Source: a virus (Duplodnaviria > Heunggongvirae > Uroviricota > Caudoviricetes). From it: DNA of 7,991 bases. Location: IMG/VR virus record IMGVR_UViG_2698536369_000013, positions 1-7,991 of that record; one strand, written 5' to 3'. Position 1 is the first letter of the stretch; every line of letters starts with the position of its first letter. This document shows positions 1 to 7,991 of the stretch, in pieces. Under the pieces are notes generated by a model. It worked only from the letters and a program-made list of their open reading frames with translations, did no database searches and was not told where the DNA came from. The position numbers and the translations under genes were made by a program.

Positions 1-54
1 TGAACCGCCCCGGGAATCCTGGAGACTAAACTCCCTGAGAAAGAGGTAAACAGA

Positions 55-381
55 ATGACTAAAAATACTCGTTTTTCCCCCGAAGTCCGTCAGAGGGCGA
101 TTCGTATGGTTCTGGAAAGTCAGGGCGAATATGACTCACAGTGGGCGGCAATTTGTTCCATTGCCCCAAAGATTGGCTGTACACCGGAGACTCTGCGTGT
201 CTGGGTACGCCAGCATGAGCGGGATACCGGAGGCGGTGATGGCGGGCTCACCACCGCTGAACGTCAGCGTCTGAAAGAGCTGGAACGTGAAAATCGTGAA
301 CTGCGCCGCAGTAACGATATCCTTCGCCAGGCTTCCGCTTATTTTGCGAAGGCGGAGTTCGACCGCCTCTGGAAAAAGTGA
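55..381 (+). CDS. IS629 OrfA (transposase N-terminal HTH / leucine-zipper protein, 108 aa)
   Basis: ATG at 55, stop TGA at 379-381. Translation [22 protein letters not shown]...[32 protein letters not shown] is the typical IS3-family OrfA. Confidence 0.9.
373..378 (+). other. Putative programmed -1 ribosomal frameshift window (A-AAA-AG run at the orfA/orfB overlap)
   Basis: AAAAAG at 373-378 immediately before the OrfA stop and inside the orfA/orfB overlap. IS3-family elements typically frameshift on an A6G-type slippery motif. Exact heptamer register not verified. Confidence 0.45.
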
Positions 382-1268
382 TGCCACTGCTGGATAAGCT
401 GCGTAAGCTGTACGGGGTCGGACCGGTATGCAGTGAACTACATATTGCCCCGTCAACGTATTACCACTGTCAGCAACAGCGACATCATCCTTATAAACGC
501 AGTGCCCGTGCGCAGCGCGATGACTGGCTGAAGAAAGAGATACTGCGCGTATACGATGGGAATCATCAGGTATACGGTGTGCGTAAAGTCTGGCGTCAGT
601 TGTTACGGGAAGGAATCAGGGTAGCCAGATGTACAGTGGCGCGCCTCATGGCGGTTATGGGACTTGCCGGTGTTCTCCGGGGTAAAAAGGTCCGCACTAC
701 CGTCAGCCGGAAAGCCGTTGCCGCAGGCGACCGCGTAAACCGTCAGTTTGTGGCAGAACGTCCTGACCAGTTGTGGGTGGCTGATTTTACTTACGTCAGC
801 ACATGGCAGGGGGTCGTCTATGTGGCGTTCATCATTGATGTGTTTGCCGGATACATCGTGGGGTGGCGGGTCTCATCGTCTATGGAAACGACATTCGTGC
901 TGGATGCTCTGGAGCAGGCGTTATGGGCCCGTCGACCGTCCGGCACAGTCCATCACAGTGATAAAGGTTCTCAGTATGTATCGCTGGCCTACACACAGCG
1001 GCTTAAGGAAGCCGGATTACTGGCATCAACAGGAAGTACTGGTGACTCGTATGACAACGCGATGGCGGAGAGCATCAATGGCCTTTACAAAGCGGAGGTA
1101 ATACACCGTAAGAGCTGGAAAAACCGGACAGAAGTGGAGCTGGCCACACTCACGTGGGTGGACTGGTATAACAATCGACGATTGCTGGAAAGGCTGGGCC
1201 ATATCCCACCGGCAGAAGCAGAAAAAGCTTATTATGCTTCCATCGGCAACGATGATCTGGCAGCCTGA
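378..1268 (+). CDS. IS629 OrfB (DDE transposase catalytic domain, probably made as an OrfAB fusion by -1 frameshift)
   Basis: Open frame in -1 relative to OrfA, overlapping its 3' end; stop TGA at 1266-1268. DDE-type motifs visible ([25 protein letters not shown]). The independent start (GTG 378 / ATG 381) is uncertain because expression is normally by frameshifting. Confidence 0.85.
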
Positions 1269-1395
1269 GTTCACAGATAAAACACTCTCCAGGAAACCCG
1301 GGGCGGTTCATACCTTTCACGCGAACGCTGCCAGTTAATACTGACTCAGCTTGTTATGGCGGGTCTGGCAGATTATCAGTTCGGTTGTTACAGAC

Positions 1396-1420
1396 GCCTT
1401 CCGCAGTGAAGGCTTTTTAA
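1396..1420 (+). terminator. Candidate intrinsic terminator (GCCTTC-cgcagt-GAAGGC followed by TTTTTAATTT)
   Basis: 6-bp perfect stem 1396-1401/1408-1413, 6-nt loop, then T5 at 1414-1418. Short stem, so only moderate support. Lies between the IS629 right end and the methyltransferase gene. Confidence 0.4.
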
Positions 1421-1559
1421 TTTGTGGTAATGGGCGGCTGGTGGGTGTTAGCGGCACCTGCCAGCCATCTGTTCATGCGTTGGGGTCACAAGCAAACCTC
1501 AGGCCCATCTGCTTTGCGCAAAAGCGGTATGAGCCTATCAGAGAAGTGCTTATTGATCT

Positions 1560-2606
1560 ATGGCCAATACTGTAAAAATATCCAGTTGTGAGTTAATCAA
1601 CGCTGATTGCCTGGAATTTATCCAGACCTTACCGGAAAACTCTGTCGATCTGATAGTCACAGACCCGCCATACTTTAAAGTGAAGCCCGAGGGCTGGGAT
1701 AACCAGTGGAAGGGCGACGATGATTACCTGAAATGGCTGGACCGATGTCTGGCGCAGTTCTGGCGGGTACTGAAGCCTGCCGGAAGTCTCTACCTGTTCT
1801 GTGGTCATCGCCTGGCATCTGATATCGAAATCATGATGCGTGAACGCTTTAATGTGCTGAACCACATTATCTGGGCGAAGCCGTCCGGGCGCTGGAACGG
1901 ATGCAACAAGGAAAGCCTGCGGGCGTATTTCCCGGCAACAGAACGCATTCTGTTTGCAGAACATTATCAGGGGTCATACCTGCCCAAAAATGACGGCTAT
2001 GCGGCAAAGGGGCGTGAACTAAAACAGCACGTCATGGCCCCGCTGATTTCTTACTTTCGTGATGCGCGTGAATCACTAGGGATAACGTCAAGACAGATAG
2101 CGGAAGCCACCGGAAAGAAAAACATGGCTTCGCACTGGTTTGGTACCAGTCAGTGGCAGTTGCCGAACGAAGGCGATTATCTGAAATTACAGGCGTTGTT
2201 TGCGCGTATTGCAGCAGAAAAACATCAACGCGGGGAACTGGAAAAGCCACACCACCAGCTGGTCAGCACATACAGTGAACTGAACCGGCAATATGCCAGC
2301 CTGCTGGATGAGTACAAATCTCTGCGGCGTTATTTTTCCGTATCGGCTGCCGTTCCGTATACGGATGTCTGGACGCACAAGCCTGTGCAGTATTACCCCG
2401 GCAAACATCCCTGTGAGAAACCGGCGGATATGTTGCGTCAGATAATTACCGCCAGCAGCCATCCGGGAGATTTGGTTGCTGATTTTTTTATGGGGTCGGG
2501 ATCAACAATAAAAGCAGCATTATCGCTGGGACGGCATGCAATAGGTGTGGAGCTGGAAGAAGAGAGATTTAACCAGACTGTAAGCGAAATAAAAGAAAAT
2601 AGTTAA
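1560..2606 (+). CDS. DNA methyltransferase, beta-class amino-MTase (N6-adenine or N4-cytosine), 348 aa, no adjacent restriction gene
   Basis: ATG 1560, stop TAA 2604-2606. DPPY motif (IVTDPPYF) near the N-terminus and an AdoMet-binding FxGxG motif (DFFMGSGST) near the C-terminus, i.e. motif IV before motif I. No endonuclease partner in the window. SD is weak, so the start is not certain. Confidence 0.85.
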   Translation: MANTVKISSCELINADCLEFIQTLPENSVDLIVTDPPYFKVKPEGWDNQWKGDDDYLKWLDRCLAQFWRVLKPAGSLYLFCGHRLASDIEIMMRERFNVLNHIIWAKPSGRWNGCNKESLRAYFPATERILFAEHYQGSYLPKNDGYAAKGRELKQHVMAPLISYFRDARESLGITSRQIAEATGKKNMASHWFGTSQWQLPNEGDYLKLQALFARIAAEKHQRGELEKPHHQLVSTYSELNRQYASLLDEYKSLRRYFSVSAAVPYTDVWTHKPVQYYPGKHPCEKPADMLRQIITASSHPGDLVADFFMGSGSTIKAALSLGRHAIGVELEEERFNQTVSEIKENS

Positions 2607-2787
2607 ATATGTGTGTGATTATTTGTAATCAATCACGAGTGATAGAAATTTATACATATATTTACTAATATTGACACTATGTTTATTGAAATAGTGTTTG
2701 CCCTCATTAATATCAATAGTCGGTTCCGAGGAGATGACAGGGAAATAATGCATATATCGGTCGTTTTATTTTTTCCGAGGAACCGTT

Positions 2788-2860
2788 GCCGATTTAACTT
2801 AGCAGACAAAGCAACTGACTTGTAATCACCGGGTCGCCAGTTCGATTCCGGTAATCGGCA
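2788..2860 (+). tRNA. tRNA-like element, probably a degenerate or non-canonical tRNA (anticodon loop CTTGTAA would read UGU)
   Basis: Perfect 7-bp acceptor stem (GCCGATT / AATCGGC), canonical T-loop TTCGATT, and correct 73-nt spacing. But the anticodon stem has only 3 pairs, the D-stem 3 pairs, G19 is replaced by A, and no CCA is encoded. Confidence 0.3.
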
Positions 2861-2866
2861 CTATAT

Positions 2867-2941
<75 letters not shown>

Positions 2942-3223
2942 GCAGAGGACAATAGATGCTAGGTTGTGTTAGGCACTGACACATTATATGTGTGGGATGT
3001 TTTTGTTTTACCCTGACTCCTTACTACATCCCGTCCTGTAATGAATGTTATTTATTACGGTATCAGTGCTGATTTTTTTATAACATCGGAATGGCGCATT
3101 GTCGGTGGAGATTTTGTATTTCCTGACAGGGTCGGTGATGTGTCATCCCGATGTTGTAAACATCGCTAAAAATGACATTGAGATTAATCATATACTAAGC
3201 AAAACCTGGAAATACATCCTTTA

Positions 3224-3248
3224 CCGCCTCCACCGGGCGGTTTTTTTT
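3224..3248 (+). terminator. Rho-independent terminator downstream of the tRNA cluster
   Basis: CCGCC (3224-3228) / GGCGG (3236-3240) stem with 7-nt loop, followed by T8 (3241-3248). Confidence 0.6.
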
Positions 3249-3620
3249 ATTCTGAACCCTAAAAAAAGAAACACGGACACTGATAATGCCCGTGTGGCAA
3301 TGCCATGTAAGTTAGCGATGAATATGGCGCAAAAAAAGCGCGGCCGTCGGATTAACGCCGCGGGACAAAGTCCATGAAGAATCATAAGTATCTGTCTCCT
3401 TCAGGAGACGAGTTGATATTACTAAGCTTTAAAAATGGTTTAAATCCTCAGATTAACCTTAATTTCAGGTAAGTCTTATTTCATTTCTTTGCGCCACGCC
3501 CGGCGCACATCAAAAACCACAGAGCCTTTCAGGGGTGAGCTTACGGGATGGTCAGTGTGACTTTCTCTGTGGGCTGGTCACCCCCGGGCGCAGGCTCACC
3601 CACTAAAAGGAAAAGTCACG

Positions 3621-4046
3621 ATGTTTGGTATTTTCAAAAAGAAAACCCGCAAGGCCATTACCGAAGTGAAGAAGATGGAGAACCGCGACGCAGTGGAGGC
3701 GACCGTCTGGGGCGCGTATTCCATTGCATATGCTGACGACACCTGTGACGCGAAAGAAGTCGCGGTACTGGAGAAAACCATTGCAGCACTTCCTGCCTTT
3801 GCGCCGTTCTCGGGTGAGATTGCACAAATGAGTGCAAATATCCGCGCCCGTTATGAAGCGTCACCGCGTTCTGCCAATGCCGAAGCCCTTCGTCAGCTGG
3901 CTGATGTTGCCGGTACTGATGATGCAGTTAACGTGCTGTGTCTGTGTCTGGATATTGCTGACCAGGACGGCATCGGTCCTGATGAAGAAGTGCAGCTCAA
4001 GAAAATTGCACAGGCGTTGCAGTTGCCGCTGGAGCAGTACCTGTGA
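3621..4046 (+). CDS. TerB-like (tellurite-resistance TerB family) protein, 141 aa
   Basis: ATG 3621 with AAGGA about 9 nt upstream; stop TGA 4044-4046. N-terminus MFGIFKKK resembles the TerB N-terminus, and two motifs of the form A-x-A-D-[DG]...E...L (AYADDTCDAKEVAVLEKTIAAL and LDIADQDGIGPDEEVQLKKIAQAL) are characteristic of the TerB fold. Confidence 0.7.
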   Translation: MFGIFKKKTRKAITEVKKMENRDAVEATVWGAYSIAYADDTCDAKEVAVLEKTIAALPAFAPFSGEIAQMSANIRARYEASPRSANAEALRQLADVAGTDDAVNVLCLCLDIADQDGIGPDEEVQLKKIAQALQLPLEQYL

Positions 4047-4195
4047 AAAGTGCGCGCCTTGTGCTGGCTGCCATCCTGCTGTTTCTGGTAGTGGTGGTGG
4101 ATTTCACCGGACGGCTGATGTCGGTGCTGGCAGATGGTGTGCTGGTGGCGATGGCGCTGGTCGTGCTCCGGCCTTTACTGCGTAAATCTGAATAA
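4043..4195 (+). CDS. Small hydrophobic protein (50 aa, about 2 predicted TM helices), GTG start overlapping the TerB-like stop
   Basis: GTG at 4043 overlaps the TGA of the upstream gene (ctGTGAaa). Translation MKSARLVLAAILLFLVVVVDFTGRLMSVLADGVLVAMALVVLRPLLRKSE, stop TAA 4193-4195. Too short for the ORF track; found by manual translation. Followed by two hairpins. Confidence 0.4.
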   Translation: MKSARLVLAAILLFLVVVVDFTGRLMSVLADGVLVAMALVVLRPLLRKSE

Positions 4196-4242
4196 CACCA
4201 CACAAAAGGCATCTGCGGGTGCCTTTGATGGGGTGTTTTTAT

Positions 4243-4264
4243 GGGCCGTTGGTGGCCCTTTTTT
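4243..4264 (+). terminator. Rho-independent terminator between the TerB-like insert and the lysis cassette
   Basis: GGGCC (4243-4247) / GGCCC (4254-4258) stem, 6-nt loop, then T6 (4259-4264). Preceded by a second hairpin AAAGGCA...TGCCTTT at 4205-4225. Confidence 0.55.
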
Positions 4265-4282
4265 ATTTACAGGAGAAAAAGT

Positions 4283-4675
4283 ATGTCTGAACCCTTATCC
4301 GGTTCCGGCACGGCTGCGGCGCTCGGCGGGGCGACGGTATTCGGGCTGTTTACCGGAACGGATTTCGGGATTGTGTTTGGTGCGTTCGCCGGGGCGTTGT
4401 TTGTGGCAACGATGCCGCAGAAGATTTCAGCCTGGCGTGTGGCGGCACATTTTCTGGTGTCGTTCATTGTTGGTGTACTGGGGGCGCGTGTACTGTCAGC
4501 CTGGATTGCATCAAAAACAGGTTATGACGGTACATCTGCGGATGCACTGTGTGCGGTGCTGGTGGCGGTGGTGTCGGTGAAGATTCTGTCGTTCATCCAC
4601 CAGCAGGATATCGCATCACTGGTGTCCGGCCTGTTCTCGCGCCTGCGGGGCGGAGGAGGCGGCAATGTTAAGTAA
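4283..4675 (+). CDS. Putative holin / lysis membrane protein (130 aa, 3-4 predicted TM segments, Gly-rich)
   Basis: Strong SD AGGAG (4271-4275) then ATG 4283; stop TAA 4673-4675. Hydrophobic helices with GxxxG-like spacing and a charged C-terminal tail. Sits immediately upstream of the endolysin and is translationally coupled to the next gene. Confidence 0.6.
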   Translation: MSEPLSGSGTAAALGGATVFGLFTGTDFGIVFGAFAGALFVATMPQKISAWRVAAHFLVSFIVGVLGARVLSAWIASKTGYDGTSADALCAVLVAVVSVKILSFIHQQDIASLVSGLFSRLRGGGGGNVK

Positions 4676-4940
4676 CCTTCCCGGATTGCTGAATGTGGCG
4701 TTATGCACGGTTATCGTGCTGACGCTCTTTTTTTATCGTCGCCGTGATTCCAGACATAAACCGCTGATGTCATGGCTGGCCTGGTTGCTGATGCTGCTGT
4801 ATGCCTTTGCGCCCCTCAGCTATCTGTGTGGTCGCCCGTTAGCAACGGGCTGGCTGGAAGTGTTTTTTAATTTGTTGTTCTGCGTGCTGGTAATACGCGC
4901 ACGCGGGAACGTCACAAAAATCTTTCCATTGTTGAGGTGA
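4665..4940 (+). CDS. Second small membrane protein of the lysis cassette (91 aa, 2-3 TM; holin or antiholin-like)
   Basis: ATG 4665 overlaps the upstream stop (ATGTTAAGTAA); stop TGA 4938-4940 lies 2 nt before the endolysin ATG. Strongly hydrophobic (LLNVALCTVIVLTLFFY..., WLAWLLMLLYAF...). Confidence 0.55.
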   Translation: MLSNLPGLLNVALCTVIVLTLFFYRRRDSRHKPLMSWLAWLLMLLYAFAPLSYLCGRPLATGWLEVFFNLLFCVLVIRARGNVTKIFPLLR

Positions 4941-4942
4941 AT

Positions 4943-5320
4943 ATGCCGGGTAAATTCAGATTCAGCCGTCGGAGCGAGAAAAATCTGGAGGGCGTCAAAC
5001 CACAACTGGTTGCTGTCGTTCGCCGTGCCCTTGAGCTGACGGAAGTTGATTTCGGTATTACGGAAGGCCTGCGCAGTAAGTATCGCCAGAAACAGCTGGT
5101 CGCGGAAGGGAAAAGTCAGACCATGAACAGCCGCCATCTGACCGGTGATGCGGTGGATGTTGTGGCCTACGTTGGCAACCAGGTGTCATGGGACTGGCCT
5201 CTGTACGAGAAAATCGCGCAGGCATTTAAGCAGGCTGCCGCAGAGCTGGGAACTGCCATCGAATGGGGCGGGGACTGGAAAACACTGAAAGACGGGCCTC
5301 ACTTCCAATTGAAACGCTGA
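4943..5320 (+). CDS. Endolysin, peptidase M15 family (L-alanyl-D-glutamate / D-Ala-D-Ala type zinc peptidase), 125 aa
   Basis: SD GAGGTG (4934-4939) then ATG 4943; stop TGA 5318-5320. Motifs typical of M15 phage endolysins: SRHLTGDAVDV (His/Asp metal ligands) and a C-terminal GGDW...DGPHFQL block. Confidence 0.8.
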   Translation: MPGKFRFSRRSEKNLEGVKPQLVAVVRRALELTEVDFGITEGLRSKYRQKQLVAEGKSQTMNSRHLTGDAVDVVAYVGNQVSWDWPLYEKIAQAFKQAAAELGTAIEWGGDWKTLKDGPHFQLKR

Positions 5321-5334
5321 TAGCCGGGCGAGTT

Positions 5335-5517
5335 ATGAGCCGAAAACACTGGACACACAGAATGCCGCGAGCGGCGGCAAAATGGGCACTGGTAGCGATA
5401 CTGGTGCCTTTTTTATTGGTGGGGTGCGTCAGCCTGGATAAGGCGCGCCAGCTTTTCGATACGGCTTCTCAGGTCTGTGAAATTGTCGACGGTGTTCGAC
5501 AGTGTCTGCAGAGCTGA
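5335..5517 (+). CDS. Small lipoprotein (60 aa; possible o-spanin-like or accessory lysis lipoprotein)
   Basis: Signal peptide with lipobox: KWALVAILVPFLLVGC (Cys after LVG). Lies immediately after the endolysin. Start at ATG 5335 or 5362 is ambiguous; no C-terminal TM segment; not Pro-rich like classical Rz1. Confidence 0.5.
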   Translation: MSRKHWTHRMPRAAAKWALVAILVPFLLVGCVSLDKARQLFDTASQVCEIVDGVRQCLQS

Positions 5518-5690
5518 TCGCCCGTAAGAGCAGAATATTTCGCTGAAAAATGAAGGATGCGCCAGCGTCCGGAAGGCATGAAATTCTGCTGTGTGTGCCA
5601 ATTTGTCTTATACATTCTGAATCTTGCCGAATCAGGACGAACTTTGAACAACAGACCGGGCGGCAAGGGGCATTTTTATCCGGAGGGGAT

Positions 5691-5915
5691 ATGAAGAGAT
5701 TACTGGTAACCGTAAAGCCCTTTAACGGAACGATTCCATTCAGGGTTTTGCAGCGTGGACGTGTTCTGGTTAAGGATATCTTCAGTGGTAAATGCACGGA
5801 GTGTTATTCCCGGACATATGAAGTGGATGCCACGGATGAAGAAATTTCTGTTGAATGTGATCTGAACGCAAATATGGCGGGGATTGTAACGGCCACGTTG
5901 TTGCCTGTTTCATGA
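5691..5915 (+). CDS. Hypothetical small protein (74 aa) with a CxxC motif
   Basis: Strong SD GGAGGGG (5682-5688) then ATG 5691; stop TGA 5913-5915. Contains KCTEC plus a third Cys (VEC). The ORF track's longer form (from 5550) has no SD, so the 5691 start is preferred. Confidence 0.55.
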   Translation: MKRLLVTVKPFNGTIPFRVLQRGRVLVKDIFSGKCTECYSRTYEVDATDEEISVECDLNANMAGIVTATLLPVS

Positions 5916-5955
5916 ATGACATAGAATGTCTCTGGGTACCCAAAAGGAGAACACT

Positions 5956-6171
5956 ATGTTTGTAGAAAATAACCTGAAGGCTGATCCTGATAATCAGGGA
6001 TGGGTTCTTGGTTGGGCTGTAGTACGTGACAAACCCTGGCATCTGGTCGGCATTTATGCAACGGAGGATGGCGCAAAGTCTAAACGCTCTGAATTGAATG
6101 GGGAGTATGAAGTTCGTTATGGTTCCCATCGTTTAGGTAGTGATGATTTTATGTCTGTCGGACTTAGCTAA
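5956..6171 (+). CDS. Hypothetical small protein (71 aa)
   Basis: SD AGGAG (5944-5948) then ATG 5956; stop TAA 6169-6171. Lies 40 nt downstream of the previous gene and is followed by a strong terminator, so probably a two-gene unit. Confidence 0.55.
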   Translation: MFVENNLKADPDNQGWVLGWAVVRDKPWHLVGIYATEDGAKSKRSELNGEYEVRYGSHRLGSDDFMSVGLS

Positions 6172-6192
6172 CTGGCTGTGATGCCTGTTTGT

Positions 6193-6217
6193 AGCCCCGC
6201 AAATGCGGGGCTTTTTT
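6193..6217 (+). terminator. Strong rho-independent terminator
   Basis: AGCCCCGC (6193-6200) / GCGGGGC (6205-6211) GC-rich stem, 4-nt loop AAAT, then T6 (6212-6217). Confidence 0.75.
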
Positions 6218-6227
6218 ATATCTGGAG

Positions 6228-6626
6228 ATGATGATGGAAAAAACAGAAAATAAACCGATTTTAGTTGGTGTCGCGTCTATTCCGTTTAAGTTTGAACTGT
6301 CACAACTGGTGGAAGTACGCATCAGTGATGAATGGGGTGAGGTTAAAGCTCGCGCGCAGTATGCGGATGGCGAAAACCAGTACTTGATCCACTACAAGGC
6401 TGCTGATGGTCGCGCCACAACGGCGTGGTTTGGTGAGTCAATGCTGGAAGCAACAGAAGATGATCGCCATCCGGGCTGTCCGGTATTTGCCGGTATGAAA
6501 TTACCGGAAGGTGCAGTTGAACTGCAGCCGGGTGAGGTGTTCGTAATGACAGACATCATTGATGGTAAACCGCAGTATTCGCGTATTGAAATGAATAGTA
6601 AGAGTGCTCGCCTGATTCGTGAGTAA
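6228..6626 (+). CDS. Hypothetical protein (about 130 aa), function unknown
   Basis: GGAG (6224-6227) followed by three tandem ATGs (6228, 6231, 6234), so the exact start is ambiguous. Stop TAA 6624-6626. Clean ORF with no overlapping competitor; no motif I recognise. Confidence 0.65.
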   Translation: MMMEKTENKPILVGVASIPFKFELSQLVEVRISDEWGEVKARAQYADGENQYLIHYKAADGRATTAWFGESMLEATEDDRHPGCPVFAGMKLPEGAVELQPGEVFVMTDIIDGKPQYSRIEMNSKSARLIRE

Positions 6627-6630
6627 CAGG

Positions 6631-6669
6631 CATTACAGCAGCCCTTCACTCTAAGGGGTTGCTGTAATG
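6631..6669. repeat. Long inverted repeat / stem-loop (14-bp stem, 10-nt loop) right after the 6228-6626 gene
   Basis: CATTACAGCAGCCC (6631-6644) pairs with GGGGTTGCTGTAATG (6655-6669) with one G-U. No downstream T-tract, so not a classical intrinsic terminator. Confidence 0.6.
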
Positions 6670-6990
6670 TGAGAAATAAAAAACCGGCCACAGGGAGCAG
6701 CTACACAGAACCGGCCGGCGAAGACCGCCAATACCACCCATGCTTTGATGCAACATACTAATGACAATAGCCGCTATTGATGTAAATGCAATGTTATGCA
6801 TCGACGAAAATAAAAAACCGGCAGGGGAAATCCATTGAAGATTTGCCGGTGGCAAAAGAGGGCCATGTTTTTAACCTTAGTCGCAGAGTTACGGAGTGCA
6901 ACTACGAATGCTGCCGGTATATGGCTGAATGGCGTTTCAATGATGTACGTCATCTTATCTGTAAACGTTAATGACAAACGCTCTCATTTG

Positions 6991-7186
6991 TGCGGGTCCT
7001 TCCGGTGGGGTGGCCTGCCACGGGGCGGAAGGCGCGCGGGTTTTCGCTATTTATGAAAATTTTCCGGGGAAAATCATGTCGGTACTTCTCGAACATAACT
7101 ATTTGTTTTTTCTAATATCGAATCCGTAAAAGGTCCGACATGAAAACGCCTAAAAAAGTCATTTTCGGGCACTTTCATGTCGGACC
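6991..7186. other. cos: Phage cohesive-end site (cosQ-cosN-cosB) of a lambda-like packaging system
   Basis: About 190 bp upstream of Nu1, as in lambda. CGGGTCCTTCCGGTG (6993-7007) resembles lambda cosQ. Putative cosN is GGGCGGAAGGCG (7023-7034) against lambda GGGCGGCGACCT. The block CGCGGGTTTTCGCTATTTATGAAAATTTTCCGG (7035-7067) matches the start of lambda cosB as I recall it. Three R-like repeats follow. Confidence 0.75.
7073..7186. repeat. Three copies of a CATGTCGG-core repeat in + / - / + orientation (candidate terminase small-subunit binding sites)
   Basis: ATCATGTCGGTAC (7073-7085, +), GGTCCGACATGAAA (7132-7145, reverse orientation), TTTCATGTCGGACC (7173-7186, +). Copies 2 and 3 form a perfect 14-bp inverted repeat. 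An AT-rich spacer (7086-7131) between copies 1 and 2 sits where lambda has its IHF site. Confidence 0.6.
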
Positions 7187-7210
7187 CTGTGTTTGTTGTG
7201 AGACTGTTTC

Positions 7211-7756
7211 ATGAAGGTTAATAAAAAGAAGCTTGCCGAAATTTTCAACGTGGATCCGCGAACGATTGAACGCTGGCAGTCTCAGGGACTCCCTTGCGTC
7301 TCCGGAGGTGGTAAGGGCGTTGAATCTGTATTTGATACCTCCATGGCAATTCAGTGGTATGCGCAGAGGGAGGCTGATATCGAAAATGAAAAACTCCGTA
7401 AAGAGGTTGAGGATTACAGGGCTGCCAGTGAGGCAGATCTCCAGCCTGGGACTATTGAGTACGAACGCCATCGACTTACGCGTGCGCAGGCCGACGCACA
7501 GGAGCTGAAGAATGCCAGAGACTCCGCAGAAGTGGTGGAAACCGCATTCTGTACTTTCGTGCTGTCACGGATCGCAGGTGAAATTGCCAGTATTCTTGAC
7601 GGGATCCCTCTCTCGGTACAGCGGCGTTTTCCGGAACTGGAAAACCGACATGTTGATTTCCTGAAACGGGATATCATCAAAGCCATGAACAAAGCAGCCG
7701 CGCTGGATGAACTGATACCGGGGTTGCTGAGTGAATATATCGAACAGTCAGGTTAA
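7211..7756 (+). CDS. nu1: Terminase small subunit, lambda Nu1-like (181 aa)
   Basis: ATG 7211, stop TAA 7754-7756. From about residue 70 onward the protein is essentially identical to lambda Nu1 as I recall it ([42 protein letters not shown]...LSEYIEQSG). The N-terminal winged-HTH region ([28 protein letters not shown]...) is clearly related but diverged. Confidence 0.95.
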
Positions 7757-7991
7757 CAGGCTGCGGCATTTTGTCCGCGCCGGGCTTCGCTCACTGTTCA
7801 GGCCGGAGCCACAGACCGCCGTTGAATGGGCGGATGCCAATTACTATCTCCCGAAAGAATCCGCATACCAGGAAGGGCGCTGGGAAACACTGCCCTTTCA
7901 GCGGGCCATCATGAATGCGATGGGCAGCGACTACATCCGTGAGGTGAATGTGGTGAAGTCTGCCCGTGTCGGTTATTCCAAAATGCTGCTG
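7731..7991 (+). CDS. A: Terminase large subunit, lambda gpA-like (5' partial, first 87 codons; continues beyond the window)
   Basis: GTG start at 7731, overlapping the Nu1 3' end by 26 nt exactly as in lambda. Translation [87 protein letters not shown] matches the lambda A N-terminus. Confidence 0.9.

Follow-up and report, generated by a model that had tools for sequence, protein, structure and literature searches.

A conserved gene pair among three mobile modules between the lysis genes and cos of a lambdoid Escherichia coli prophage

The window analysed here, that is, the whole stretch of 7,991 nucleotides (nt) at positions 1 to 7,991 of the IMG/VR virus record IMGVR_UViG_2698536369_000013, is the late region of a lambdoid Escherichia coli prophage. 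Three small genes, named A, B and C in this work, lie in it between the lysis cassette and a lambda-like cos site. A copy of this 4 kb with 99% identity is present in E. coli GPEC79-13-647, the annotation of which lists all three as hypothetical proteins. A first-pass annotation, made from the letters of the window, had described them as one cluster of three genes in a cargo slot between lysis and cos. The placement was borne out, and the gene sizes, the 40-nt gap between A and B, the non-coding leader ahead of A, the terminator at 6193-6217 and a long hairpin were all present, the leader (5518-5690) measuring 173 nt and the hairpin (6630-6670) 17 pairs. The cluster itself resolved into two parts: A and B form a conserved, co-inherited pair, arranged in tandem across phages of Enterobacterales and convergently, within tail operons, across those of Pseudomonas and Azotobacter, whereas C is an independent module and not part of the pair. 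Loci used for comparison are designated L001, L002 and so on.

Genes A, B and C and their mobility

The genes and the units in which they are gained or lost are as follows.

5518-5597, plus strand: backbone 3′ of the lipoprotein gene, common to related prophages without A and B, with a blastn junction at 5597/5598 against L002, L018 and L020
5598-5911, plus strand: module A, an indel unit made of gene A and 93 nt upstream of it
5691-5915, plus strand: gene A, 74 amino acids (aa), Shine-Dalgarno sequence GGAGGGG at 5682-5688, phrog_2571, modelled as a soluble six-strand beta-sandwich
5912-6217: module B with its terminator, junctions 5911/5912 and 6217/6218
5956-6171, plus strand: gene B, 71 aa, Shine-Dalgarno sequence AAGGAG at 5944-5949, start 40 nt past the A stop, phrog_4280
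6218-6619: module C, junctions 6217/6218 and 6619/6620
6234-6626, plus strand: gene C, 130 aa, acidic, start as given by PGAP in L001, phrog_1935

As their protein families are conserved down to 30-55% identity, A, B and C are real genes. Three in-frame ATGs, beginning at 6228, are available to gene C. The GC content of A and B (0.449 and 0.444, with a value of 0.347 at the third codon positions of B) is lower than that of the lysis genes, which ranges from 0.50 to 0.57 and is about 0.55. The isoelectric points (pI) of the three products are 6.2, 5.2 and 4.9, respectively, and their maximum Kyte-Doolittle scores over 15 residues are 1.34, 0.49 and 1.43, compared with 2.89 for the lipoprotein encoded upstream. 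No hydrophobic segment or lipobox was detected in any of the three by this simple hydropathy test, which is not a dedicated predictor. The AF2 models of A and B reached a predicted local distance difference test (pLDDT) score of 89.8 and 94.2.

The scans of A, B and C against Pfam, NCBIfam and PADLOC gave no match, and the PDB sequence-profile searches returned nothing. For the three proteins and the lipoprotein, PADLOC-DB 2.0 yielded 0 defence families at E <= 1. In PHROGs, the matches were solely to the three families of unknown function given above, in agreement with the first-pass reading that none of the proteins belongs to a recognised family. The comparison with anti-defence proteins of solved structure (Acr, Ocr, sponges) showed no similarity of sequence or fold, and a literature search on the accession numbers, the PHROG identifiers and DUF7457 found nothing relevant.

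The A family has few members: an exhaustive profile search gave 46 cluster representatives among 1.84 billion. Long multi-domain matches to its profile (P0201 and P0218) were discarded as low-complexity, eukaryote-like repeats. The CxxC motif to which attention had been drawn earlier is present in the window protein (C35-T-E-C38), but it is not conserved: its second cysteine is often replaced by Q, L, S or G, and the distant homologues are cysteine-free. A metal or redox site was rejected on this ground.

Gene B is predicted to encode a soluble beta-beta-alpha-beta-beta domain, the model of which found no fold match in PDB. Its invariant residues (W16, V17, G19, A40, G56, S57, L60, G61, S62, D63 and F65) fall in the consensus motifs DPDNxGWVLGW and YGSHRLGSDDF. 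Homologues of B occur in Serratia, Pseudomonas, Vreelandella and others. Against Pfam, the best score of the window protein was 12.5 bits with a cut-off of 27, and the best E values within the B family were 0.004-0.008. Weak matches among the B homologues were to DUF7457 (5 of 43) and DUF7336 (5 of 43), with none to DUF2188 at E <= 1. In gene C, an N-terminal domain of ~95 aa is conserved, and the C-terminal third (6518-6619) is variable.

The comparison of related prophages revealed a mosaic of presence and absence. In L002, 620 bp (5598-6217) are replaced by 79 bp; together with L018 and L020, this locus follows the backbone to 5597 and resumes at 6218, so that only C is present. L005 aligns with 5335-5911 (95% identity) and next with the hairpin from 6620 on, so that A alone is present; O157-type prophages also carry A only. 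L022 matches 5673-6224 at 85% identity and continues with the cos region, thus having A, B and the terminator and no C. The cluster is complete in the window and in L001. Because relatives carry A, C, A-B or A-B-C with sharp junctions, A, B with its terminator, and C are separate mobile modules. Of 5426 complete E. coli genomes, ~1300 have A-like DNA, 33 have B, ~374 have C and 24 have the entire cluster.

The independence of C was apparent from its distribution. In E. coli and Salmonella, it is found with neither A nor B, beside different terminase types; lambdoid prophages that carry it in this way have a small subunit of the Nu1, DUF1441 or Terminase_4 type. Further settings lacking A and B are plasmids of 48 kb that bear phage genes and a P2-like prophage of Yersinia, in which C is flanked by the genes for the small terminase and gpL.

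The A-B pair across phages

In IMG/VR, 73 of the 80 B loci have an A-family neighbour within 250 nt. A tandem A is present at 53 of them and a convergent gene, called A′, at 20; the remaining 7 have neither, and two of these seven lack flanking sequence. An A-family gene lies directly 5′ of B in three E. coli lineages, in which B is 100, 85 and 68% identical at the nucleotide level (in the third, A is 30% identical at the amino acid level), as well as, among species-representative genomes, in Pseudocitrobacter, Yersinia, Scandinavium and Providencia. The isolated phage mEp237 carries the pair as gp60/gp61. The genetic context of the pair varies: it was found after spanin genes, after the major tail protein gene (phrog_853; Yersinia), with A after a cII-like gene (Scandinavium), and before a holin gene. 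The linkage of A and B therefore extends well beyond E. coli, and the pair is conserved as a unit, in line with the first-pass grouping of the two genes.

In Pseudomonas and Azotobacter prophages, a gene A′ of ~80 aa abuts the 3′ end of B in convergent orientation. A′ is on the strand of the tail operon, between the tail chaperone and tape measure genes (as in L090) or near I, K and J, and B is on the opposite strand. The same convergent arrangement is present in P. aeruginosa phage YMC11/02/R656, as gp056 and an under-annotated gp055. In this phage, the B homologue (L097 3489-3710, record positions 27507-27728) is annotated as a 43-aa fragment; its full 73-aa frame matches the B profile at E 7e-30.

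A stop-to-stop search of open reading frames (ORFs) for B neighbours was too noisy in the high-GC Pseudomonas genomes and was replaced by jackhmmer seeded with the convergent ORF. The hhalign comparison of A with A′ gave a probability of 90.6% and an E value of 1.3e-6, with the shared core F.V.Q.G....D.fSGKC..Y.R.Y. Sub-threshold matches of the A profile in Pseudomonas fell almost exclusively on the ORF abutting B, where ~2-3% would be expected by position (an estimate and not a computed statistic). Across 70 unique pairs, the mean identity was 0.42 for A and 0.69 for B, and the two divergences are correlated (r = 0.74). Between the tandem and convergent types, B retains 54% identity, while A and A′ are near noise. 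B is the slowly evolving partner and A a fast-evolving small beta-sandwich.

Several observations weigh against a strict pairing. The homology of A and A′ rests on 32 aligned columns. In E. coli, ~1270 genomes have A and no B, and 54 of 65 species-representative genomes with B, mostly Pseudomonas, showed no A or A′ at the sensitivity used (58 of 79 when all B loci are counted). In Serratia, B is alone. Pairing is thus facultative. Many of the solo-B loci in the species-representative genomes share flanking genes.

These solo occurrences bear directly on the toxin-antitoxin pair named as one option by the first-pass annotation. A type II toxin-antitoxin or similar addiction pair would suit the small size (~70 aa), adjacency and common orientation of the two genes, the fact that they travel as a unit and the terminator that closes them, and also the inverted repeat near a predicted promoter, which could be an autoregulatory operator; moreover, some Pseudomonas pairs lie in cargo islands that also carry HigB/helix-turn-helix (HTH) genes. 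However, a search beside solo A in E. coli found no remnant of B, and B is alone in most Pseudomonas species genomes as well as in Serratia. Since A and B each occur alone, neither can be a toxin requiring the other. No toxin or antitoxin family was matched in Pfam, NCBIfam or PADLOC, and neither the beta-sandwich of A nor the model of B is a ribbon-helix-helix, HTH, AbrB or known toxin fold. Finally, the promoter-like element stands between the genes and not 5′ of the first one, and the genes converge in Pseudomonas. We consider a toxin-antitoxin function very unlikely.

Another explanation is that the three genes are unrelated hitch-hikers and that the adjacency of A and B reflects a shared preference for insertion hot-spots. 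In its favour, cargo is known to be carried both in the lysis-cos interval and in gaps of tail operons (PMC3594210), each of the three genes often occurs singly, and all single- and two-gene combinations except B alone and B with C occur among close E. coli relatives. This explanation is at odds with the A-family neighbours at 73 of 80 viral B loci and with the near restriction of weak Pseudomonas A-profile matches to the ORF that abuts B. The adjacency also persists through at least seven contexts and a change of orientation, and the divergences of the two genes are correlated, as given above. Mere co-location is accordingly improbable as an account of the pair.

The position of A′ raised a further alternative, in which A and A′ are tail-associated accessory proteins, i.e., free-standing copies of a tail-tip beta-sandwich domain, and B is an unrelated moron inserting nearby. 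It agrees with the location of A′, which is encoded on the same strand as the tail operon and lies either between I/K and J or between the genes for the chaperone and the tape measure, and with that of the Yersinia pair after the major tail protein gene. Furthermore, the family member P0200 combines a weak Phage_Tail_Tip match with a C-terminal A domain, and the next gene after the pair in L023 codes for a tail tip fibre. The fold matches of A are, however, to generic beta-sandwiches, with PNGase F, hemocyanin and carbohydrate-binding modules scoring the same or higher, and Foldseek against viral models returned nothing at E <= 0.001. In E. coli, A follows lysis genes, in Scandinavium it follows the cII-like gene, and the close relatives L002 and L018 lack it, so it is not required. 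A preference for such slots would also leave unexplained both the A-B adjacency in at least seven contexts and the correlated divergence. A role of A as a tail accessory protein thus appears unlikely.

Signals around the genes

The following signals were identified at B and downstream of C.

5898-5927, plus strand: predicted sigma-70 promoter of B, with a -35-like TTGTTG at 5898-5903, an 18-nt spacer and a -10 hexamer TAGAAT at 5922-5927; it overlaps the 3′ end of A
5928-5953, plus strand: inverted repeat in the 5′ untranslated region (UTR) of B, spanning the Shine-Dalgarno sequence, with a central perfect palindrome GGGTACCC at 5934-5941
6193-6217, plus strand: intrinsic terminator, an 8-bp GC stem at 6193-6212 followed by a run of T6, which closes the B unit
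6630-6670, plus strand: hairpin of 17 pairs including G-U, with a folding free energy (dG) of -26.8 and z of -6.1, lacking a U tract

All of 27 distinct sequences upstream of B agree at three positions of the -10 hexamer, namely T, A and the final T. A -35-like element (TTGCCT, TTGGCT, TTTATT or TTGTTG) lies 17-18 nt 5′ of it in these sequences, within the end of A. Since B in Pseudomonas is on the strand opposite the tail operon, its arrangement there also implies a promoter of its own, as a prediction.

The inverted repeat reads TATCTCC-GGGTACCC-AAA-GGAGATA. Its 3′ arm is the Shine-Dalgarno sequence, and it often reaches over the AUG. It occurs once in the window, with 0.02 occurrences expected. 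Across lineages, 85.7% of the alignment cells are paired, compared with 51-59% when the partners are shifted by one to three columns (44% at +3), and five pairs change on both sides; none of 500 shuffles reached this. The folding of the 5′ UTR across lineages gave a mean dG of -8.5 and a mean z of -1.9. The central 8-nt palindrome changes from GGGTACCC to GGTTAACC through compensatory change at positions 3 and 6. An alternative reading of the repeat is a DNA operator, because an RNA hairpin with a 2-nt loop cannot use the pairing of the palindrome.

The terminator at 6193-6217 has a dG of -17.1 kcal/mol and a z of -3.9, and none of 200 shuffles folded equally well. A terminator-like hairpin, the stem of which exists in at least three different sequences, follows B in most of the Enterobacterales loci examined (the window, L022, L023, L024, L026, L030 and mEp237). 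The exceptions are L025 and L027, which have weaker U tracts, and the Serratia locus L011, which has none. An Rfam search over 5518-6700 found nothing except sub-threshold GcvB and OmrA-B matches, located on the terminator.

In the Pseudomonas B loci (L006, L090, L094, L159 and others), a conserved non-coding block was noted ~40-90 nt 5′ of B. It consists of ATCCAGCGTGGATG / CTGTACAG ... GCCAGTAACGC ... GTAGTAGCGTT ... GCCTTC ... AAGGAGCGGTCATG and accompanies B regardless of the gene further upstream. The block fits the sigma-70 consensus poorly and shows no significant RNA structure.

The situation of A is different, with the predicted promoter being on the second gene only. No sigma-70 promoter was predicted in the leader, the RNA structure of which is not significant (z +0.84), and a search for a promoter upstream of A in nine loci found none. 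In O157-type prophages, A directly follows Rz and in one case overlaps the Rz stop codon. Given this overlap and the promoterless leader, A is probably read from the late operon. The first-pass view of an independently transcribed insert is therefore correct as regards the insert, as A-B with the terminator behaves as one (the 620 bp against 79 bp in L002); its transcription from the leader was not supported, the promoter-like element being located before B. Upstream of the A homologue in L023 (3616-3711) and L026 (4600-4695), two short palindromes were observed, TATCCC...GGGATA and ATATCCC...GGATAT, which could be operators or repeat elements and are absent from the window.

Gene C starts 16 nt past the terminator at 6193-6217, so it would be reached by read-through only. 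The hairpin at 6630-6670 is not an intrinsic terminator, as it has no U tract. It belongs to the conserved backbone that runs to cos, outside the C module, and is kept in L002, L018 and L020 as well as in L005, in which 6620-6669 comes immediately after A. Prophages with differing cargo share this hairpin, and fragments of it also match an Stx2k phage and an Actinobacillus phage. On the minus strand, terminator-like sites lie 3′ of it at about 6701-6677 and 6850-6808; the region 6677-6860 has no annotated gene.

The signals and the conservation of B were also considered in terms of a counter-defence protein, e.g., a sponge or inhibitor of a conserved immune component, with A as its helper. The B protein, mildly acidic at a pI of 5.2, is small and soluble. 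Its conservation between E. coli and Pseudomonas is unusually high (~54% identity), and it has spread horizontally among unrelated phages. In addition, the invariant polar loop GSHRLGSDDF together with DPDNxGWVLGW suggests a site for a ligand or partner. Nevertheless, B is located in late or tail regions with its own predicted promoter and facing away from the late operon, a pattern that established phage biology associates with cargo expressed from the prophage and not with genes for early anti-defence, and it is alone in many Pseudomonas genomes showing no A or A′. We regard such a division of labour as having a low probability.

Surroundings, proposed roles and relation to known systems

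The other features of the window are listed below.

55-1268: complete IS3-family element, orfA 55-381, orfB 378-1268
1560-2606: DNA methyltransferase gene
2788-2860 and 2867-2938: two tRNA-like genes by Rfam, at 45.9 and 65.6 bits (region 2788-2941)
3621-4046: TerB-like (TerB-family) gene
4241-4675 and 4665-4940: two holin genes
4937-5320: M15 endolysin gene
5335-5517: lipoprotein gene, 60 aa, lipobox LVGC
about 7023-7034: lambda-like cos region, GGGCGGAAGGCG, then CGCGGGTTTTCGCTATTTATGAAAATTTTCCGG (cosN region about 7023-7040)
7211-7756: Nu1 gene

The IS3-family element, just 5′ of the prophage DNA methyltransferase gene, carries an ALIL frameshift pseudoknot at 336-452 (Rfam RF01497, 116 bits). 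ARAGORN called only the second tRNA-like gene, as tRNA-Gly(TCC); at this position, related prophages have Ile/Arg/Arg or Ile/Thr/Gly sets. The TerB-family gene and a DUF3927 gene (3621-4195), between the tRNA region and the holins, form another cargo pair, common to L001 and L018. Between the M15 endolysin and lipoprotein genes (5320-5340), ~260-600 bp are missing relative to L002 and L018, and the missing stretch encodes ORFs of 93 and 37 aa in these relatives. The gene upstream of the leader, previously taken for Rz, encodes the lipoprotein with LVGC and is not a canonical Rz; no i-spanin-like gene was evident in the lysis cassette of the window.

The sequence CGCGGGTTTTCGCTATTTATGAAAATTTTCCGG presumably matches that to the right of cosN in lambda. 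Similarity to several related prophages stops at about 7039-7063, where the terminase module switches; the terminase small subunit is Nu1 in the window and DUF1441 or others in the relatives. Between cosN and Nu1 (region 7126-7190), there is a 14-nt inverted repeat, GGTCCGACATGAAA / TTTCATGTCGGACC, which is probably a terminase binding site.

Taking the results together, we think it probable that the lysis-cos slot is occupied by three accessory modules, each mobile on its own, in which A and B are a conserved pair, B is a moron, A is a late gene and C is separate, and that the pair is neither a toxin-antitoxin system nor an essential structural component. A moron is an insertion with deviating GC content, its own promoter and its own terminator, and the first one described lay between the tail chaperone and tape measure genes (PMC3594210). 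We read B as a moron because of the conserved -10 element, the covarying inverted repeat, the terminator hairpins with differing stems and the opposite strand in Pseudomonas. It would be a classical one, having its own sigma-70 promoter, an inverted repeat in the 5′ UTR that may occlude the ribosome-binding site or act as an operator, and its own terminator. Its expression would then be controlled and separate from late transcription, probably taking place from the prophage. Gene A would have no promoter of its own and be read from the Q-antiterminated late transcript, with the lysis genes or, depending on the locus, the tail genes, and C would be a separate late accessory protein.

Some of the results count against this overall reading. 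A generic promoter scan did not flag the B promoter, which in the window has a poor -35 element (3/6) and was derived only from the consensus pattern. The hairpin of the window's own UTR is weak (-4.7 kcal/mol, z -0.1), and a search of Pseudomonas-type loci showed that it is not present there. Moreover, no family, fold or neighbour that would name an activity was found for A, B or C.

The most likely role of the pair, which we propose tentatively, is that of a module for phage-phage or phage-host interaction, acting in exclusion/defence or counter-defence. In such a module, B, which is soluble and conserved, would have a conserved target, and A may provide phage-specific specificity. With somewhat more reserve, A and B may be viewed as an unrecognised two-component phage accessory system across Gammaproteobacteria, with B as a highly conserved effector that has a promoter of its own, is controlled in translation or by an operator and has a modelled fold not in PDB, and A as a fast-evolving late beta-sandwich of J-like geometry, serving as phage-specific partner or trigger. 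As a two-component system, it could employ B, e.g., as a prophage-expressed exclusion/defence factor or as a counter-defence sponge.

The cluster is ordinary in kind, being phage cargo, yet it holds a previously undescribed conserved gene pair with defined signals. A large share of the uncharacterised prophage cargo consists of such genes, and few of them form a testable unit. Here, three hypothetical proteins became a defined module with conserved signals (a predicted promoter, a covarying dyad over the ribosome-binding site and a terminator), and two gene families were linked across distant hosts. Two isolated phages that carry the pair, mEp237 (gp60/gp61) and YMC11/02/R656 (gp056/gp055), can be used directly. 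If the pair does mediate interactions between phages or between phage and defence, a widespread system would be added to those known; if not, this is an ordinary moron cluster.

Among known systems, type II toxin-antitoxin loci resemble the pair in having two adjacent genes of ~70 aa, horizontal mobility and a dyad near a predicted promoter, and differ from it in the points given above: the frequent occurrence of A and B alone, the absence of a matching family or fold, the predicted promoter between the genes and the convergent arrangement in Pseudomonas. The beta-sandwich domains of the lambda tip attachment protein J (PDB 8iyk_J, 9e7m) share 11-12% identity with A, and unrelated beta-sandwiches score equally; unlike them, A is a free-standing protein of 74 aa, which in E. 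coli follows lysis genes and is dispensable among close relatives. B is similar in size and in its strand-strand-helix-strand pattern to DUF7457, DUF7336 and DUF2188, and one B homologue is named 'DUF2188 domain-containing protein' in UniRef. Nevertheless, B scores far below the gathering thresholds of these families, which are themselves without known function. The Bor-like lipoproteins of the same slot differ from A, B and C, in which the hydropathy test showed no signal peptide, lipobox or membrane segment.

The closest resemblance is to the phage morons, such as HK97 gene 15 and lambda bor and lom (Juhala/Hendrix; reviewed by Cumby, Davidson and Maxwell 2012, PMC3594210). As in these, the genes are present or absent between related phages, the GC content of the insert differs from that of its neighbours, B is preceded by a promoter-like element and closed by an intrinsic terminator, and the locations are the classical ones, i.e., the lysis-cos interval and the gap that separates the tail chaperone gene from the tape measure gene. 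Unlike gp15, Bor and Lom, which are membrane or outer-membrane proteins, the products of A and B are predicted to be soluble and cytoplasmic, and they are encoded by two linked genes, of which only the second is predicted to have a promoter.

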